Part shown: piece by piece, positions 9,614 through 26,689 of the stretch
Layout: each line of letters begins with the position of its first letter
How positions within the stretch are numbered: the stretch's first letter is position 1
From: a virus
Lineage: Duplodnaviria; Caudoviricetes
Strand: one strand, 5' to 3'
Length of the DNA stretch: 64,000 bases
Virus record (IMG/VR): IMGVR_UViG_2731957752_000002
Span: 24,025-88,024 of that record
The notes under the pieces: model-generated
What the model saw: the letters and a program-made list of their open reading frames with translations, nothing else
Database searches by the model: none
What the model was told of the DNA's origin: nothing
Position numbers and translations under genes: made by a program

Positions 9614-9891
9614 CCGCCGCGACCCCGCCCGCGTTCGTCTACATCCAGCGCGCGGAGAAGCTGATCCACGAGCTGCCAGCAGGCACAGAGTTCGTGAACG
9701 CCGACATCTACGCACGCATGAAAGCGGCAGGCTGGCCTGACATGCCGGAACCCCGCCAGTTCGGGCCGATGCTGCTGCGTCTCCGCCGTGAAGGCGTCAT
9801 CGAAAAAGCAGGAGTCCAGGCAACAGCCGCCCGATCACACGGAGGAGTCGCATCCGTGTGGCGCCGAACCCGAATGGAGAAGACGACATGA
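9610..9891 (+). CDS. Winged-helix-like hypothetical protein
   Basis: Coupled ORF; EPRQFG...SHGG..VW. Confidence 0.65.
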   Translation: MTAATPPAFVYIQRAEKLIHELPAGTEFVNADIYARMKAAGWPDMPEPRQFGPMLLRLRREGVIEKAGVQATAARSHGGVASVWRRTRMEKTT

Positions 9892-14575: not shown

Positions 14576-15224
14576 AGCGACCCCTGAGCTAGTCGCGGGC
14601 GCGCACACCGCCTTTGTCGACGCTGTCCATGCGCTCATCGGCCTGCGCCCCGACACCATCACCCGCGACGACGGAACCACCACCATCGTCCTCGACAGCC
14701 TCTACGCCGAACTCCTCGAAGCCCGACACGGCGAACAACGCAGCGACCCAACCGCCGGCACCGTCTACAAATCCCGGCCGCCCTTGTGGATCGACGCCGC
14801 GAGCCTGCTGCATCAGATCGACCGCACCGTAGCCGGATGGTGGCGTCACCTGCCCGCGGACGACCACGGCCTGCCCGCCACCGTGCGACGTTTGCATGCC
14901 CTCGTCGACCACGATTGGCGCCCGCAGGATGTGGGGGAGTTGCGGCGGATGACACGCACCGTCGAAGACTGGGTGCAGCGCGTGAAAACGCTGCTGCCCG
15001 AGGAAGTCACACACACGTGGGAGTTGCGAGCTGCCTGCCCGGCTTGCGGTGAAACCACCCTGCATGTTGACGACGGCAGCGGGGAGCTGGTGCGGCGGGC
15101 GGTGTTGCAGGCCAACCAATCCGGTGCGCACTGCCTCGCCTGCACAACCACGTGGGCGCCTGAATACTTCGCGATCCTCGCTCGAACGATCGGCGCGGGC
15201 CTCCCGGAAGGCGTGCTCGAATAA
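14568..15224 (+). CDS. Zn-finger protein typical of the end of early operons in actinobacterial prophages
   Basis: SRPPLWIDA; CPAC and CLAC. Confidence 0.75.
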   Translation: MSEATPELVAGAHTAFVDAVHALIGLRPDTITRDDGTTTIVLDSLYAELLEARHGEQRSDPTAGTVYKSRPPLWIDAASLLHQIDRTVAGWWRHLPADDHGLPATVRRLHALVDHDWRPQDVGELRRMTRTVEDWVQRVKTLLPEEVTHTWELRAACPACGETTLHVDDGSGELVRRAVLQANQSGAHCLACTTTWAPEYFAILARTIGAGLPEGVLE

Positions 15225-15229
15225 CGCTG

Positions 15230-15259
15230 TTGCATCCAGTGAATGCGATGTGTTACAGT
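15230..15259 (+). promoter_or_regulatory. Promoter of Y RNA/Ro60 locus, TTGCAT-N18-TACAGT with extended -10 TG
   Basis: Hexamers; two TGAATG motifs 19 nt apart. Confidence 0.75.
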
Positions 15260-15275
15260 GAATGAAAGCATCGGA

Positions 15276-15348
15276 TCCCGGTGCGAACGCAGACGGTTAC
15301 TTCTCATTCTGGTTGATAAAGACACCGACTGCGGTCATGTTCTCGGGA
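15276..15348 (+). ncRNA. Y-RNA-like unit 1 (short; apical TTCTGGT loop)
   Basis: Nested stems TCCCGG/TCGGGA, CGCAG/CTGCG, CGGT/ACCG; GGTGCGA and GGTTACTTC motifs. Confidence 0.6.
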
Positions 15349-15360
15349 GACAACTTCACA

Positions 15361-15504
15361 GGGGCGCTGGTCCGTAGGAGTGGGTTACTTCGCATTGGGA
15401 GCGCGTAGAGCGGGTTCAACTCCCGCCATCTCGCCATAGCGCGAGATGTGGTGTAACGGCAGCACTCGTACACGTCACCTACACCGTCTTGTTGTCAGCG
15501 CCCT
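15361..15504 (+). ncRNA. Y RNA (YrlA-like) unit 2 with circularly permuted tRNA domain
   Basis: GGGCGCTG/CAGCGCCC terminal stem, GCTGGTCCG Ro-binding motif, T arm, closed acceptor stem, D arm; upstream of TROVE gene. Confidence 0.85.
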
Positions 15505-15554
15505 ACTGTGACTGCCTCCCAAGGGCATCCGGGAAACCGGGGAGAACTTCACAA

Positions 15555-15662
15555 GGTGCTGATCCGTAGAAGTGGGTTACTTCTTTGGTTGAAACTCGCA
15601 GTGCTCCTGCGAGCTAGCGGTTCAAACCCGCACGTCACCCACCTCGCCTTGTTGACAGCACC
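15555..15662 (+). ncRNA. Y-RNA-like unit 3
   Basis: GGTGCTG/CAGCACC stem, GATCCG...TTGAC, GTGGGT/ACCCAC, T arm GCGG-TTCAAAC-CCGC. Confidence 0.8.
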
Positions 15663-15711
15663 GCTTGAAGCCTCCCAGCGCAATCCAGGAACCCGTTGGG
15701 AGGCATTTCTT

Positions 15712-17385
15712 ATGGCCCGCTTCAATACCCCCGCCAAGGCACGCCCAGTCGCTGTCGGACCGATCCGCACCAAGAGCAAGAAGACCACCACCCACGAGGG
15801 TGCGGACGGATTCTTGCGCGACGCACGCTCCGAACTGCTTCTTTTGGCAGTCTCAAATTTCGTAGGCACCGACTCCTTCTATGAGTCCGCTGCCGTCCGT
15901 GACGGTCGCTACCAGAAGCTCGTGCGGAAGATGGCCGTCAAAGACGGCGACTGGACCGCCCAGCTCCTCGCGTGGCTCCGCGGCCCCGAAGCCAACATGC
16001 GCACCGCATCGCTCGTCGGCGCCGCCGAATACGTGAAAGCCCGCCTCGACGCCGGCATCACAGGCAACAACCGGCACGTCATCTCGTCCGTTCTTCAGCG
16101 CGCCGACGAGCCGGGGGAGATGCTGGCCTACTGGGCCTCGAAGTACGGCTGGCCGGGAGGGCGCACACCCCACGAGAGCGGTAAGATGCCGACCGCGCCG
16201 GTGCTCCCGCAGCCGGTCAAGCGAGGCGTTGCAGACGCGGCGGTCAGGCTGTTTTCGGAACGGTCGCTGTTGAAGTACGACACCGCATCCCACGGCTTCC
16301 GGTTCGGCGACGTCATCGACCTCACTCACCCCGAGCCCAAAGCTGACTGGCAGTCCGACTTGTTCCGGCATGCCCTCGATCGCCGACACAACCGGGGCGA
16401 GAACATCCCCGACGCGCTGAACATGTTGGTGAAGAACCGGAACGTCCGCAACTGGACACCGGAGGAGATCGTGAAGCGCGCGAATTACACCGGTGACGAA
16501 CTGACGCCATTGTCGGAGGTGCTCGCGCAGTCCGGCATGACATGGGAAGACGTTCCGTCGTTGGTGAACGGACCGTGGACGAAGGAACTGTGGGAAGCCA
16601 TCATCCCGTCCATGGGCTACATGGCGCTGCTGCGTAACCTCCGCAACTTCGATCAGGCGGGCGTGTCCGACAAGGTGGCGGCGCAGGTGATCGCGAAACT
16701 CGCCGACCCCGAGCAGGTTGCGCGGTCGCGGCAGCTGCCGATGCGGTTCCTGTCCGCGTACAAGGCGGCGCCGTCGCTGCGGTGGGCGTACCCGCTGGAG
16801 CAGGCGTTGGATCACTCGCTCAGCAACATTCCGAAGCTCGCGGGCCGCACCCTGATCCTCGTGGACACCTCGTCGTCGATGGACGCTGGCTTCAGCAAGG
16901 ACGGGACGCTCATGCGGTGGGATGCCGCGGCGCTGTTCGGGATCGCGTTGGCGTCGCGTTGCGCGGACGCGGACGTGGTGTCGTTCTCGTCGACTGCCAT
17001 CTACTGGGGTGACCCTGTCGGCGCGAGGACGAAGGTGTTCGACCGCCCGCGTGGTGAGTCGCTGCTGAAGTCGCTGGACCGTTGGAAGTCGGGTGGCTGG
17101 TTCCTCGGCGGCGGTACAGCCACCCGAGAAGCCGTGCAGAAGCATTTCGCGAACCACGACCGTGTCGTCATCCTCACCGACGAACAGGCGGGCGGCACAG
17201 GGAATCCTGGCGCGGCAATCCCCAAGCAGACGCCGCTGTACACATGGAACCTCGCCGGATACCGAGCGAGTCATGCGGAGTCCGGTCCGTTCAGGCACAC
17301 GTTCGGCGGGTTGAATGACAGCGGCTTCCGCCTGATTCCGTTGTTGGAATCCGGGCGCAACGGCACGTGGCCGTGGATCTCCTGA
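15712..17385 (+). CDS. rsr: Ro60/Rsr TROVE-domain RNA-binding protein with C-terminal vWA
   Basis: THEG, SFYES, QRADEPGE, MGYMALLRNLRN, vWA MIDAS DTSSS, GGT, ILTDEQ; GGGAGG RBS before ATG 15712. Confidence 0.95.
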   Translation: MARFNTPAKARPVAVGPIRTKSKKTTTHEGADGFLRDARSELLLLAVSNFVGTDSFYESAAVRDGRYQKLVRKMAVKDGDWTAQLLAWLRGPEANMRTASLVGAAEYVKARLDAGITGNNRHVISSVLQRADEPGEMLAYWASKYGWPGGRTPHESGKMPTAPVLPQPVKRGVADAAVRLFSERSLLKYDTASHGFRFGDVIDLTHPEPKADWQSDLFRHALDRRHNRGENIPDALNMLVKNRNVRNWTPEEIVKRANYTGDELTPLSEVLAQSGMTWEDVPSLVNGPWTKELWEAIIPSMGYMALLRNLRNFDQAGVSDKVAAQVIAKLADPEQVARSRQLPMRFLSAYKAAPSLRWAYPLEQALDHSLSNIPKLAGRTLILVDTSSSMDAGFSKDGTLMRWDAAALFGIALASRCADADVVSFSSTAIYWGDPVGARTKVFDRPRGESLLKSLDRWKSGGWFLGGGTATREAVQKHFANHDRVVILTDEQAGGTGNPGAAIPKQTPLYTWNLAGYRASHAESGPFRHTFGGLNDSGFRLIPLLESGRNGTWPWIS

Positions 17386-17693
17386 ACCTGGTTTCGGGTC
17401 TGCTGGGGTGGAGGAGAGCGCAGGCGGCTGGTCGTGCGCTCTCCGCCCAGCTGGCGGCCAACCGGAACGCATTCAAAGCCGACCTCGTTCGGGCGCGTGA
17501 GGACGCTGGACTGAGCCGTGAGGACGTCGCCGAACGGCTTGGTGTCAGCGTCGAGCACATCGCCCGGTTCGAGGATCCGAAAGCCAACCCGCGACTGCAA
17601 ATGATCTGTTCCTACGCGCATGCGATCGGCGCGATCGTGGCGTTCGATGTCCGACCGTTCGAAGGGGATAAGGTTGCGAAACAAGCTGGGTGA
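17367..17693 (+). CDS. XRE-family HTH protein
   Basis: REDAGLSREDVAERLGVSVEHIARFE. Confidence 0.8.
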   Translation: MAVDLLNLVSGLLGWRRAQAAGRALSAQLAANRNAFKADLVRAREDAGLSREDVAERLGVSVEHIARFEDPKANPRLQMICSYAHAIGAIVAFDVRPFEGDKVAKQAG

Positions 17694-23853: not shown

Positions 23854-24449
23854 CCAGCATCGTGAAAGCTGTGCAAACCTGCTACGCAATCCCGTCAACG
23901 TGGGACGTGTGGACCGAGGCGGGCGAGTACCTGCACTTGAAGTACCGGAGCGGGTTGGCGAAGGTGTTCGTCGGTTCAGAGGACGGCCCGCTGGAGATGG
24001 AAAGCGCTATCCGCATCGGCAACCGGTTCGACGGCCTCATCACCATCGAAGCATTCTGCGAGGCAATAGGATTGACGTTGGCGTTGCAGGAACCGTACGT
24101 GCCGCTGCCGGATCCCAACGAGGGCCACGACGATCACGATGGCGAAGATCCGTCGTGGGCCGTGAAGACGGAGCGACCTGTCCGCGCGGAGGTGTTGCAG
24201 GAAGCGGAAGCGCTGGTGTGCGGCGATCGAGATGAGCAGTACGGTTCGCCGCGGGACAACCTCCAGCGGATAGCGAACTACTGGAACGATTACCTCTTCG
24301 ACGTAGTCCACCCGGAAAACCAGCTCACACCACGTGACGTCGCCCTGATGATGGTGCTGCTGAAGGTCGCGCGCGAGGCCGCGGGACACAAGCGCGACTC
24401 GTGCGTGGACGGCGCCGGATACTTCTCGCTGGCCGCTGAAGTGGCGTAA
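23850..24449 (+). CDS. Protein with C-terminal DUF6378-like domain
   Basis: [15 protein letters not shown]...[13 protein letters not shown]...DS.VD.AGY. Confidence 0.75.
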
Positions 24450-24561
24450 TCGGCGGTATGCCCGAGGTCGGGGCGGGGACCGGTTAGGTCGATCAATCGT
24501 CGTACGGATAGGGTTGGTGGCTGTTGTCCATTCCCCGCCAGCCCTGGACAGGAGACCAGTA

Positions 24562-25947
24562 GTGGGTAAGCAGTCCCGTGTCGATACCGTCGCCAACCTC
24601 GCAAAACGTCGAGGAATCGTCTACCAATGCGGCGAAATCTATGGCGGCACCAAGTCGGCATGGGACTACGGTCCGCTCGGCGTCGAGCTGAAGGAGAACA
24701 TCAAGCGGCAGTGGTGGCGGTCCATGGTCACCGGCCGCGAAGATGTCGTCGGCTTGGACTCGTCGGTGATCCTGCCGCGCCAGGTGTGGCATGCATCCGG
24801 CCACGTCGAGACGTTCTCTGACCCGCTGGTGGAGTCGCTACACACCCACAAGCGATACAGGGCCGATCACCTGCTGGAGGCGTACGAAGCCAAGCACGGG
24901 CACCCGCCGGCCAACGGTCTCGCCGACATCCGTGACCCTGAGACGGGGCAGCCTGGCGCGTGGACGGAGCCGCGGAACTTCTCCGGCCTGCTCAAGACCT
25001 TCCTCGGTCCGGTGGATGACGAAGAAGGCTTGCACTATCTCCGCCCGGAGACGGCGCAGGGCATCTTCGTCAACTACAAGAACGTCGAGACCACCGCGCG
25101 CAAGAAGCCGCCGTTCGGCATCGCCCAGATCGGCAAGAGCTTCCGCAACGAGATCACGCCGGGCAACTTCATCTTCCGCACCCGCGAGTTCGAGCAGATG
25201 GAGATGGAGTTCTTCGTCAAGCCGGGCGAGGACGAGCAGTGGCACCAGTACTGGATCGACACCCGCATGGCCTGGTACACCGAACTGGGTATCGACCCGG
25301 AGAATCTGCGACTGTTCGAGCATCCGAAGGACAAGCTGTCGCATTATTCGACGCGGACTGTGGACATCGAGTACCGGTTCGGGTTCCAGGGCAGCGAGTG
25401 GGGTGAGTTGGAAGGTGTCGCCAACCGCACTGACTTCGACCTGAAGACGCATTCGGAGCACTCGGGTACCGAACTCAGCTACTTCGACCAGGCCACCAAC
25501 GAGCGCTACATCCCGTACGTCATCGAGCCCGCGGCCGGTCTGACTCGTTCGCTGATGGCGTTCCTGGTGGACGCGTACACGGAGGATGAGGCGCCGAACG
25601 CGAAGGGTGTGATGGAGTCGCGGACCGTGCTGCGCCTGGACCACAGGCTTGCGCCGGTGAAGGTGGCGGTGCTGCCGCTGTCCCGTAACGCTGATCTGAC
25701 TCCGAAGGCGAAGGATCTCGCGGCCCAGCTGCGGAAGCACTGGAATGTGGAGTTTGATGATGCGGGTGGTGTCGGTCGTCGTTACCGCCGTCAGGATGAG
25801 ATCGGTACACCGTTCTGTGTGACGGTCGATTTCGATTCGCTGGACGATCAGGCGGTGACCATCCGGGAGCGGGACTCGATGGCGCAGGAGCGTGTCGGGT
25901 TGGACCAGGTGGAAGCGTATTTGGCGACGCGGCTGCTGGGCTGCTGA
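24562..25947 (+). CDS. glyQS: Glycine--tRNA ligase (alpha2, class II)
   Basis: [61 protein letters not shown]; AGGAG RBS before GTG. Confidence 0.97.
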
Positions 25948-26170: not shown

Positions 26171-26240
26171 TCCTCGATAGCTCAGTGGTAGAGCGCCCGA
26201 TAGAAAGGGACGGTCCCGCGTTCAATTCGCGGTCGAGGAA
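26171..26240 (+). tRNA. tRNA-like gene with defective anticodon arm (isotype undetermined)
   Basis: Perfect acceptor TCCTCGA/TCGAGGA, D arm and T arm; anticodon arm only CCC-GATAGAAA-GGG. Confidence 0.7.
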
Positions 26241-26243
26241 CAA

Positions 26244-26587: not shown

Positions 26588-26663
26588 AGCGGCGTAGAGC
26601 AGTTCGGTAGCTCGCTGGGCTCATAACCCAGGTCTGTCGTGGGTTCAAATCCCACCGCCGCGA
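26588..26663 (+). tRNA. tRNA-fMet (CAT), initiator type
   Basis: Cloverleaf; 1:72 mismatch, three G-C pairs in anticodon stem, A11-U24; CCA not encoded. Confidence 0.9.
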
Positions 26664-26689
26664 CAACCACCCCGACTTTGCGAACCGGG

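Follow-up and report, generated by a model that had tools for sequence, protein, structure and literature searches.

An anticodon-arm-like hairpin in a prophage-encoded YrlA-type Y RNA

The subject of this work is a small RNA encoded in a 64,000-nucleotide (nt) stretch of viral DNA, positions 24,025 to 88,024 of IMG/VR record IMGVR_UViG_2731957752_000002, which we call the window. It is close to certain that the RNA at 15360-15505 is a YrlA-type Y RNA, the predicted partner of the Ro60-like protein encoded beside it. We found some support for the view that the V stem-loop, which lies 5' of the T arm, is built like the anticodon arm of a tRNA in the actinobacterial and actinophage clade. The triplet in its loop is not a working proline anticodon. 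The reading that we favor, and hold to be quite probable, is that of a composite in which the YrlA tRNA-like module is joined to a hairpin that is the structural equivalent of an anticodon arm, with neither proline identity nor decoding.

A YrlA-type RNA in the window

YrlAs have been described with four stem-loops, namely a less conserved V, found in many members, that lies 5' of T and is predicted to begin with the conserved YUAY, then T, the closed acceptor-like AS, and D, and with RNA ends that form the Ro-binding stem (Chen et al. 2014, PMC4201824). Chen et al. looked for Y RNAs within 4 kb of a TROVE/Ro60 orthologue on the same strand and gave GNCGAAN0-1G, related to GGUCCGA, as the Ro-type motif near the Y RNA 5' end (PMC4201824). 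The window has a TROVE/Ro60 orthologue less than 4 kb from the RNA, on the same strand. Its open reading frame (ORF) begins 206 nt 3' of the RNA end (15505). The order of T stem-loop, closed AS stem-loop and D stem-loop was found in the window and in 65 distinct candidates from related loci, and UUAC (15385-15388) stands directly before the hairpin at 15389-15405. The GGUCCGU of the window is a 6/7 match to GGUCCGA, with no literal match to GNCGAA. The same architecture is present 5' of rsr in IMG/VR contigs, in Nocardia, Spirillospora and many other actinobacterial genomes, and in Gordonia phage Neville and Streptomyces phage GiJojo. No family of Rfam 15, the Y RNA families included, matches the window RNA. 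The RNA is an added member of the already known YrlA family, and its parts are as follows.

15360-15505, plus strand: YrlA-type Y RNA, 146 nt, with the tRNA-like core inside
15360-15388, plus strand: 5' strand of the predicted Ro60-binding module, with terminal stem AGGGGCGCUG, GGUCCGU, link-helix strand GUAGGAGUGGGU and the conserved UUAC
15389-15405, plus strand: anticodon-arm-like hairpin UUCGC-AUUGGGA-GCGCG, at the published V stem-loop position
15406-15409, plus strand: 4-nt linker UAGA, where the variable loop of a tRNA would be
15410-15426, plus strand: T arm GCGGG-UUCAACU-CCCGC (T-arm segment of the Rfam tmRNA model, E 0.0024)
15427-15448, plus strand: closed acceptor hairpin of 8 pairs (7 bp plus G-1:C73), loop CAUAGC
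15449-15465, plus strand: U8 G9 (15449-15450) and D arm GUGU-AACGGCA-GCAC (15451-15465), tRNA-Gln type
15466-15505, plus strand: joiner UCGUACACGUC, single-stranded, followed by the 3' strands of link helix and terminal stem

An earlier note on this DNA, made by a model from the letters and their ORFs, had described 15391-15465 as a circularly permuted tRNA-Pro-like domain that keeps an anticodon loop. A base-by-base reading found every element that it listed, and the permuted, YrlA-like order of a tRNA-shaped domain is shared by the homologues. In the minimum free energy (MFE) fold, 15361-15370 is paired with 15496-15505, the terminal-stem strand AGGGGCGCUG (15360-15369) with CAGCGCCCU (15497-15505), and GGUCCGU comes after the 5' strand. 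The terminal stem and the link helix are kept with changes on both sides (RNAalifold, 13 homologues), and 3 nt (UAC) separate the link helix from the hairpin. The acceptor strands are CAUCUCGC (15427-15434) and GCGAGAUG (15441-15448), closed by the loop at 15435-15440, with pair probabilities of 0.94-0.99. In the 7-bp register C1 (15442) pairs with G72 (15433), and CCA (15434-15436) follows G72 immediately. A CCA within 5 nt past the seventh acceptor pair is found in 9/65 relatives. The T-arm helix has 99.8-100% of its cells paired in the alignments of relatives. The D arm is of the tRNA-Gln type, as the note had held: it is identical at 14 of 15 positions with the D arm of the host tRNA-Gln(UUG), and the best host match to the 5' acceptor and D half is Gln(UUG), followed by Gln(CUG). 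A GUGU D stem occurs in 7/65 relatives. Judged by the Rfam T-arm match and the homologues, chance does not account for the T arm, the acceptor hairpin or the D arm.

The T arm, the acceptor, the D arm, their permuted order and the opening at the acceptor loop are published family traits; only the reading of the hairpin is new. The likeness of YrlA to circularly permuted pre-tRNAs is likewise in print (10.1101/312249). We found no paper that calls the V stem-loop of YrlA an anticodon arm in the literature searched, which excluded most subscription journals; the hairpins or related prophage RNAs may already be included in Supplemental Fig. S1 or Tables S1/S2 of Chen et al.

The hairpin in related YrlAs

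Relatives were collected from rsr loci in IMG/VR (8), in named genomes (5), in 17/301 genomes of the family of the window's host (its own included) and in 32/401 genomes of the class. A home-made parser, which accepts only sequences that combine T arm, closed acceptor hairpin and D arm, returned the 65 distinct candidates, which come from 59 loci plus the window. Directly 5' of each T stem we applied a home-made frame test, which requires a 7-nt loop, a distance of 4 or 5 nt to the T stem, and a 5-bp frame in which at least 4 pairs form, the two that adjoin the loop among them. Among host tRNA calls, 41 of the 44 in class I passed, with the true anticodon framed in 41/41, whereas only 3 of the 12 long calls passed, with the true anticodon framed in none.

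Thirty-six of the 65 candidates passed the frame test, 25 of them with 5/5 pairs. In controls, 13% of shuffled upstream segments passed, and frames slid 3, 6, 8 and 10 nt upstream passed in 5, 9, 11 and 9 of 65. The linker to the T stem was 4 nt in 14 of the hairpin-bearing relatives and 5 nt in 22. The passing hairpins use 12 different complementary inner 3-bp stems and 24 different loops, and their loop consensus is C-U-NNN-R-A (C32 in 29/36, U33 in 36/36, R37 in 34/36 and A38 in 34/36). In an unfitted MAFFT alignment of the 65 candidates, 60% of the cells of the hairpin helix pair (62.7% in the model-fitted alignment), and each of the 5 pairs has changed on both sides. The score for covariation was 0.317 as compared to 0.161 for shuffles (0/500 reached it) and at most 0.197 for slid partners. 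These counts overstate independence since the relatives share descent. A covariance model of hairpin, linker and T arm built from the hairpin region (R1) also matches the anticodon-to-T part of a real tRNA-Met, at 26608-26655.

Class II variable arms carry a short loop and are followed by the T stem after only 0-2 nt. The window hairpin has a 7-nt loop and a 4-nt linker, and does not fit that definition. The 7-nt loop, the 4-5 nt to the T stem and the pass rate of class I tRNAs point to the geometry of an anticodon arm followed by a short variable loop, rather than to that of a class II variable arm. The note's placement of the hairpin at anticodon-arm distance from the T arm stands with the 4-nt linker. 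Its further view, that the hairpin sets this RNA apart from canonical YrlA, does not hold, in that the hairpin occupies the published V position and M. smegmatis YrlA has a like hairpin (PMC4201824).

One YrlA copy, in L004 at about 1395-1425, has no 5' hairpin; by eye, it carries an extra GAAA-capped hairpin across the junction, directly 3' of the D arm.

Stability of the window hairpin and other views of it

The window hairpin is weak. It consists of three G-C pairs (CGC, 15391-15393, with GCG, 15401-15403, around AUUGGGA, 15394-15400) plus a U.G pair, and with one U.C mismatch (15390/15404) it has 4/5 frame pairs. By RNAfold its 7-nt-loop register has a probability of only about 0.3 (0.28-0.30), and an alternative CUUC/GGAG pairing reaches 0.11-0.13. 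The R1 score of the window is 29.1 bits, as compared to 40-58 bits for most relatives. Taken alone the window hairpin is not beyond chance, as 13% of shuffled upstream segments pass the same test; its reality rests on the homologues, in which 36/65 pass against 5-11/65 for slid frames. The D arm is likewise not predicted by energy (probability 0.006), and energy models are therefore a poor judge of the tRNA-like module.

Several points weigh against the anticodon-arm reading. The frame test is failed by 29/65 relatives, and only 60-63% of the helix cells pair; the hairpin is dispensable. L016, the closest relative of the window (same genus, Rsr 71%), is among those that fail, with 3/5 pairs. 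In the window a 9-nt-loop register, in which CGC pairs with 15403-15405, is slightly favored by RNAfold (probability 0.33-0.34). The invariant U33 may be inherited instead of selected, given that the relatives share descent. The only solved YrlA, that of Salmonella Typhimurium, has the helix of the Ro module and no hairpin at the position of the anticodon stem, and its authors state that YrlA has no anticodon loop (Wang et al. 2018, 10.1101/312249). Finally, the expression, ends, processing and Rsr binding that we would assign to the window RNA are taken from published YrlAs.

The strongest competitor, which we consider possible and yet doubt, is that the hairpin is a peripheral stem-loop of the variable-arm type and that the link helix, stacked beneath the D stem, takes the part of the anticodon stem, as in S. 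Typhimurium. The secondary structure would be the same and the three-dimensional role would differ, with the look of an anticodon arm being inherited or coincidental. This view agrees with the published name V (PMC4201824) and with the solved Salmonella structure (10.1101/312249). It also agrees with the hairpin being the least conserved helix, missing from the 29 relatives just mentioned, and with covariation at the top of the link helix (GGU/ACC). It is at odds with the 7-nt loop and the 4-5 nt to the T stem, and with the long host tRNA calls, so few of which pass and none with the anticodon framed. A second difficulty is the joiner between the D stem and the link helix, which has about 6-11 unpaired nt in the relatives, as compared to 1 nt in tRNA and in Salmonella YrlA.

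We think it rather unlikely that the window hairpin is a decayed remnant without defined structure, 15386-15409 being a flexible joiner. In favor of such decay are the small number of G-C pairs, the competition among the three registers, the low R1 score, the poor pairing in L016, and the isolated 24-mer, which prefers CUUC/GGAG at -3.0 kcal/mol. The whole-RNA MFE structure, in contrast, includes the CGC/GCG hairpin. Moreover, hardly any differences separate the window from L016 in the 5' Ro strand, up to and including UUACUUCGCAUU(G/C)GGAGC, or in the 3' strand, whereas their T, acceptor and D arms have diverged, the D arm of L016 being of another type. That UUACUUCGCAUU(G/C)GGAGC was kept while the arms diverged argues for constraint. 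L016 encodes ACCA directly after G72, where the window has CCA.

The loop triplet and proline identity

The 36 passing hairpins carry 21 different triplets. The loop of L016, on a weaker stem, is AUUCGGA with the triplet UCG, so that the conservation of the loop on which the earlier note had staked its reading was not found. Three close relatives that share one stem have GUG, GUG and GUU. In another group of seven close relatives, a run of 42 aligned positions consists of 32 invariant sites, 2 variable ones and then 8 invariant ones, positions 34-35 being the sole sites that vary.

The likeness to tRNA-Pro(UGG) that the note had seen stands for the loop, which is identical at 6 of 7 positions with the host loop UUUGGGA, and fails beyond it. 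The whole 17-nt arm matches that of the host tRNA-Pro(UGG) at 13/17, which is background, since host arms of different amino acids reach a mean best of 12.4/17. When the loop was masked, the host tRNAs closest to the window module were Gly(CCC) and Gly(UCC), with Pro(UGG) third. C1-G72 is present in 14/65 relatives. Descent of the window module from tRNA-Pro was considered and rejected on account of the loop-masked rank and the background level of the arm match. The proline identity set comprises G35, G36, G72 and A73. The window has the first three, with C at position 73 where the host tRNA-Pro(UGG) has A73, and therefore lacks the full set. Among the 36 hairpins, the amino acid of the loop was that of the best loop-masked host tRNA in 4, as compared to a permutation mean of 1.6, which is not significant (P = 0.064).

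The bodies of YrlAs fall into types. One is tRNA-Glu-like, with the D arm GUCU-AGUGGCCUA-GGAC and a 4-nt NNAC linker, as in L013, L048, L055 and L059. Another is tRNA-Gln-like, with the D arm GUGU...GCAC, and includes the window, L002, L050 and L052. Many loci carry tandem YrlAs, two or three in number, that differ in type. The one clearly concordant member is L013 (1165-1290), both halves of which resemble tRNA-Glu (score 32 vs. 15 for the next other amino acid) and the loop of which, CUUUCAC, is of the tRNA-Glu type. The Glu-bodied L055 and L059 read CGG and GCG, and the Gln-bodied L050 and L052 read AGG.

These data bear on an extended form of the anticodon-arm idea, which we regard as improbable. 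In it, the V stem-loop of actinobacterial and actinophage YrlAs is a true anticodon arm and the module a complete tRNA opened between positions 26 and 27. Positions 34-35, the variable ones in a 5' half that is otherwise frozen, would be exposed and diversifying, such that the Ro60-Y RNA particle would present a changeable anticodon loop. In the conflict of phage and host, anticodon-directed enzymes (nucleases, modification enzymes, synthetases) could find in that loop a decoy, sensor or guide. Some YrlAs, such as L013, would then keep the body of one particular tRNA.

That the RNA is the precursor of a working proline-type or other chargeable two-piece tRNA is highly improbable. The acceptor loop would be opened by RNase P and 3' trimming, CCA completed, and G35, G36 and G72 used by prolyl-tRNA synthetase. 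The acceptor of 7-8 bp with C1-G72, the encoded CCA and the loop UGG followed by G37 all fit such a precursor. M. smegmatis YrlA, which in vivo is cleaved by RNase P and acquires CCA (PMC4201824), fits it too and is also a precedent for the opening at the acceptor loop that the note had suggested. Against it, the triplet varies, the body does not resemble that of tRNA-Pro, the D arm resembles that of tRNA-Gln, and the halves would remain tied to the Ro module. The C at position 73 counts further against proline charging, as bacterial tRNA-Pro needs A73. Bacteria are not known to have an enzyme that would remove the extension (10.1101/312249).

There is next to no chance that 15360-15435 is an ordinary tRNA-Pro(UGG) gene. 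ARAGORN calls it 'tRNA-Pro(tgg)', using the Ro-binding strand as acceptor and D arm. The Rfam tRNA model (RF00005), however, gives no match in 15200-15800 at the gathering score or at E up to 10, the acceptor of the window RNA is a closed hairpin and not the free ends of a tRNA cloverleaf, and the real tRNA-Pro(UGG) lies elsewhere in the genome. In the in-silico permutation that the note had proposed, ARAGORN called 63/65 permuted constructs tRNA, that of the window as Pro with a shifted 'ggg', and it accepted 57/65 constructs with shuffled hairpins as well, so that the test does not discriminate.

Genomic context

The window belongs to a prophage that encodes terminase, portal, major head protein and tape measure, and that sits in a 7.7-Mb actinobacterial genome. 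Two neighboring features follow the YrlA-type RNA.

15555-15662, plus strand: second Y RNA, YrlB-like, with 5' motifs as in YrlA (GAUCCGUAGAAGUGGGUUACUUC)
15712-17385, plus strand: rsr-like gene for a TROVE-domain (Ro60-like) protein of 557 amino acids (Pfam PF05731, E 1.1e-18)

The TROVE protein shares 45-47% identity with the 'Ro-like RNA binding protein' of phages of Gordonia and Streptomyces, and scores only 18.8 bits against the NCBIfam Rsr equivalog, the cut-off of which is 900. A DNA search of the phage collection with 15300-15720 gave zero matches, and a look-up of sequencing runs for the stretch listed none. A scan of 15100-17600 for consensus sigma-70 promoters found none, and one terminator-like site was found there, on the minus strand; shuffles give more.

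The YrlB-like RNA has the hairpin UUC-UUUGGUU-GAA, the 7-bp hairpin CUCGCAG-UGCUC-CUGCGAG and the T arm GCGG-UUCAAAC-CCGC, without an acceptor arm or a D arm. A small hairpin after UUAC is present both in this RNA (15581-15593) and in the second RNA of L017 (minus strand), where it is UUCA-UUUGGAU-UGAA. The order of small hairpin, longer hairpin and T arm in the two RNAs recalls that of anticodon arm, long variable arm and T arm. A conserved leader, AACUUCA(C/G)A, lies immediately 5' of each Y RNA of the window (15352-15359 and 15545-15552) and at the equivalent place in L001, L003, L006 and L008. It comes after the UCUCGGG-type end of the element before, and may be a processing or start signal.

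Further downstream, among phage-like genes, is a complete glycine--tRNA ligase gene (24514-25947, plus strand; NCBIfam NF003211, E 2e-200; PDB 8t5n, E 8.5e-259). It is a second copy, the other copy (82% identical) being on contig C50 of the same genome, and may be a prophage-borne synthetase. No link between this gene and the Y RNA loop was found. ARAGORN also reports tRNA-Ser(aga) at 26171-26241 and tRNA-Met(cat) at 26588-26664 in the prophage; of the two, the tRNA-Met alone, at 58.4 bits, attains the Rfam gathering score, and the tRNA-Ser call may be spurious.

Proposed function and implications

By analogy with published YrlAs, the YrlA-type RNA is probably transcribed together with the YrlB-like RNA and rsr. 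By the same analogy, the Ro60-like ring would bind the terminal stem, and the T and D loops would form a tRNA elbow recognised by tRNA enzymes or another effector. RNase P may open the acceptor hairpin of 7/8 bp, with the CCA then rebuilt, as in M. smegmatis. The hairpin is probably kept as the equivalent of an anticodon arm, a relic of a tRNA ancestor. The flanking positions of its loop would be constrained and the middle bases free to vary.

The effector of the YrlA tRNA-like module is still unknown to the field (10.1101/312249). If the stem-loop is the equivalent of an anticodon arm, the candidate partners would widen to enzymes that read the anticodon arm, and the G36-G37 loop of the window would offer a simple way to test m1G37 formation. 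The tRNA origin of Y RNAs would also gain an intermediate that is better preserved than the Salmonella RNA.

A practical consequence is that 5' halves of YrlAs get read as tRNA genes: besides the ARAGORN call in the window, tRNA finders call them tRNA in 6/30 foreign loci. In Streptomyces phage GiJojo (PP725410.1), a 'tRNA-Arg(cct)' deposited at 9796-9870 (L062, 1269-1343), 158 nt 5' of the Ro-like gene, overlaps the 5' half of a YrlA, the closed acceptor hairpin and tRNA-Gln-type D arm GUGU-AAUUGGCA-ACAC of which continue 3' of it. This is probably a mis-annotation. In Gordonia phage Neville (NC_060131.1), a YrlA with the hairpin CUUCC-AUGCUAA-GGACG (L063, about 1230-1375) lies just 5' of the Ro-like gene and beneath two small 'hypothetical protein' coding sequences, gp089 and gp090.

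Comparison with known systems

The closest described counterpart is YrlA of Mycobacterium smegmatis. Like the window RNA, it is about 147 nt long and lies 5' of rsr, with a T-arm-bearing YrlB next to it, and it has T, closed acceptor and D arms, a stem-loop 5' of T and a 7-bp acceptor (PMC4201824). Read as its reverse complement, the published YrlA-5' probe gives UUAC-CA-CUUCUAA-UGGAA-UGGUC and contains a hairpin of the same kind with the loop CUUCUAA, so that the feature, there named V, is present in a validated YrlA. The M. smegmatis YrlA locus, searched with this probe, was not found in the 401 family genomes sampled. The window RNA differs in being prophage-borne and in its tRNA-Gln-like D arm, its loop AUUGGGA, its weaker hairpin and the CCA directly after G72. 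For the M. smegmatis RNA, expression and Rsr binding have been shown, as have cleavage by RNase P in vitro and two halves with completed CCA in vivo (PMC4201824), whereas the window RNA is known from its sequence.

Yrn1 of Deinococcus radiodurans shares with the window RNA a T arm and, by its authors' proposal, a possible 'anticodon arm' with a 5-bp stem (PMC4201824). Unlike the window hairpin, this arm has a 6-nt loop and lies between the T- and D-like arms, and its authors assign Yrn1 to a separate lineage (PMC4201824). The b7a-tRNA of Burroughs and Aravind 2016, as cited in 10.1101/312249, is a closely tRNA-like predicted non-coding RNA found beside RtcB and Band-7 proteins. It and YrlA are reportedly interchangeable in some loci, and it has, unlike the window RNA, the ordinary tRNA order (10.1101/312249). 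Neither RtcB nor another RNA-ligase family was found in the neighboring window ORFs that were scanned.

Salmonella YrlA, the tRNA-like module of which has been solved, has the same order of T stem-loop, closed acceptor and D stem-loop as the window RNA, with YUAY 5' of the variable region and a Ro module made by the RNA ends (10.1101/312249). In contrast to the window RNA, it has a 5-nt variable loop and no hairpin at that place; its link helix begins at 83, 1 nt after the D stem-loop (67-81), and serves as the anticodon stem (10.1101/312249). The acceptor of the Salmonella RNA is 6 bp long, and RNase P does not cleave it (10.1101/312249).

The permuted pre-tRNAs of some algae and an archaeon resemble YrlA in their closed acceptor end and in having the RNA ends on the anticodon side (10.1101/312249). 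They are turned into working tRNAs by a splicing endonuclease and a ligase, and such a pathway is not reported from bacteria (10.1101/312249). In the window RNA, unlike in these precursors, the RNA ends form a predicted Ro-binding stem.

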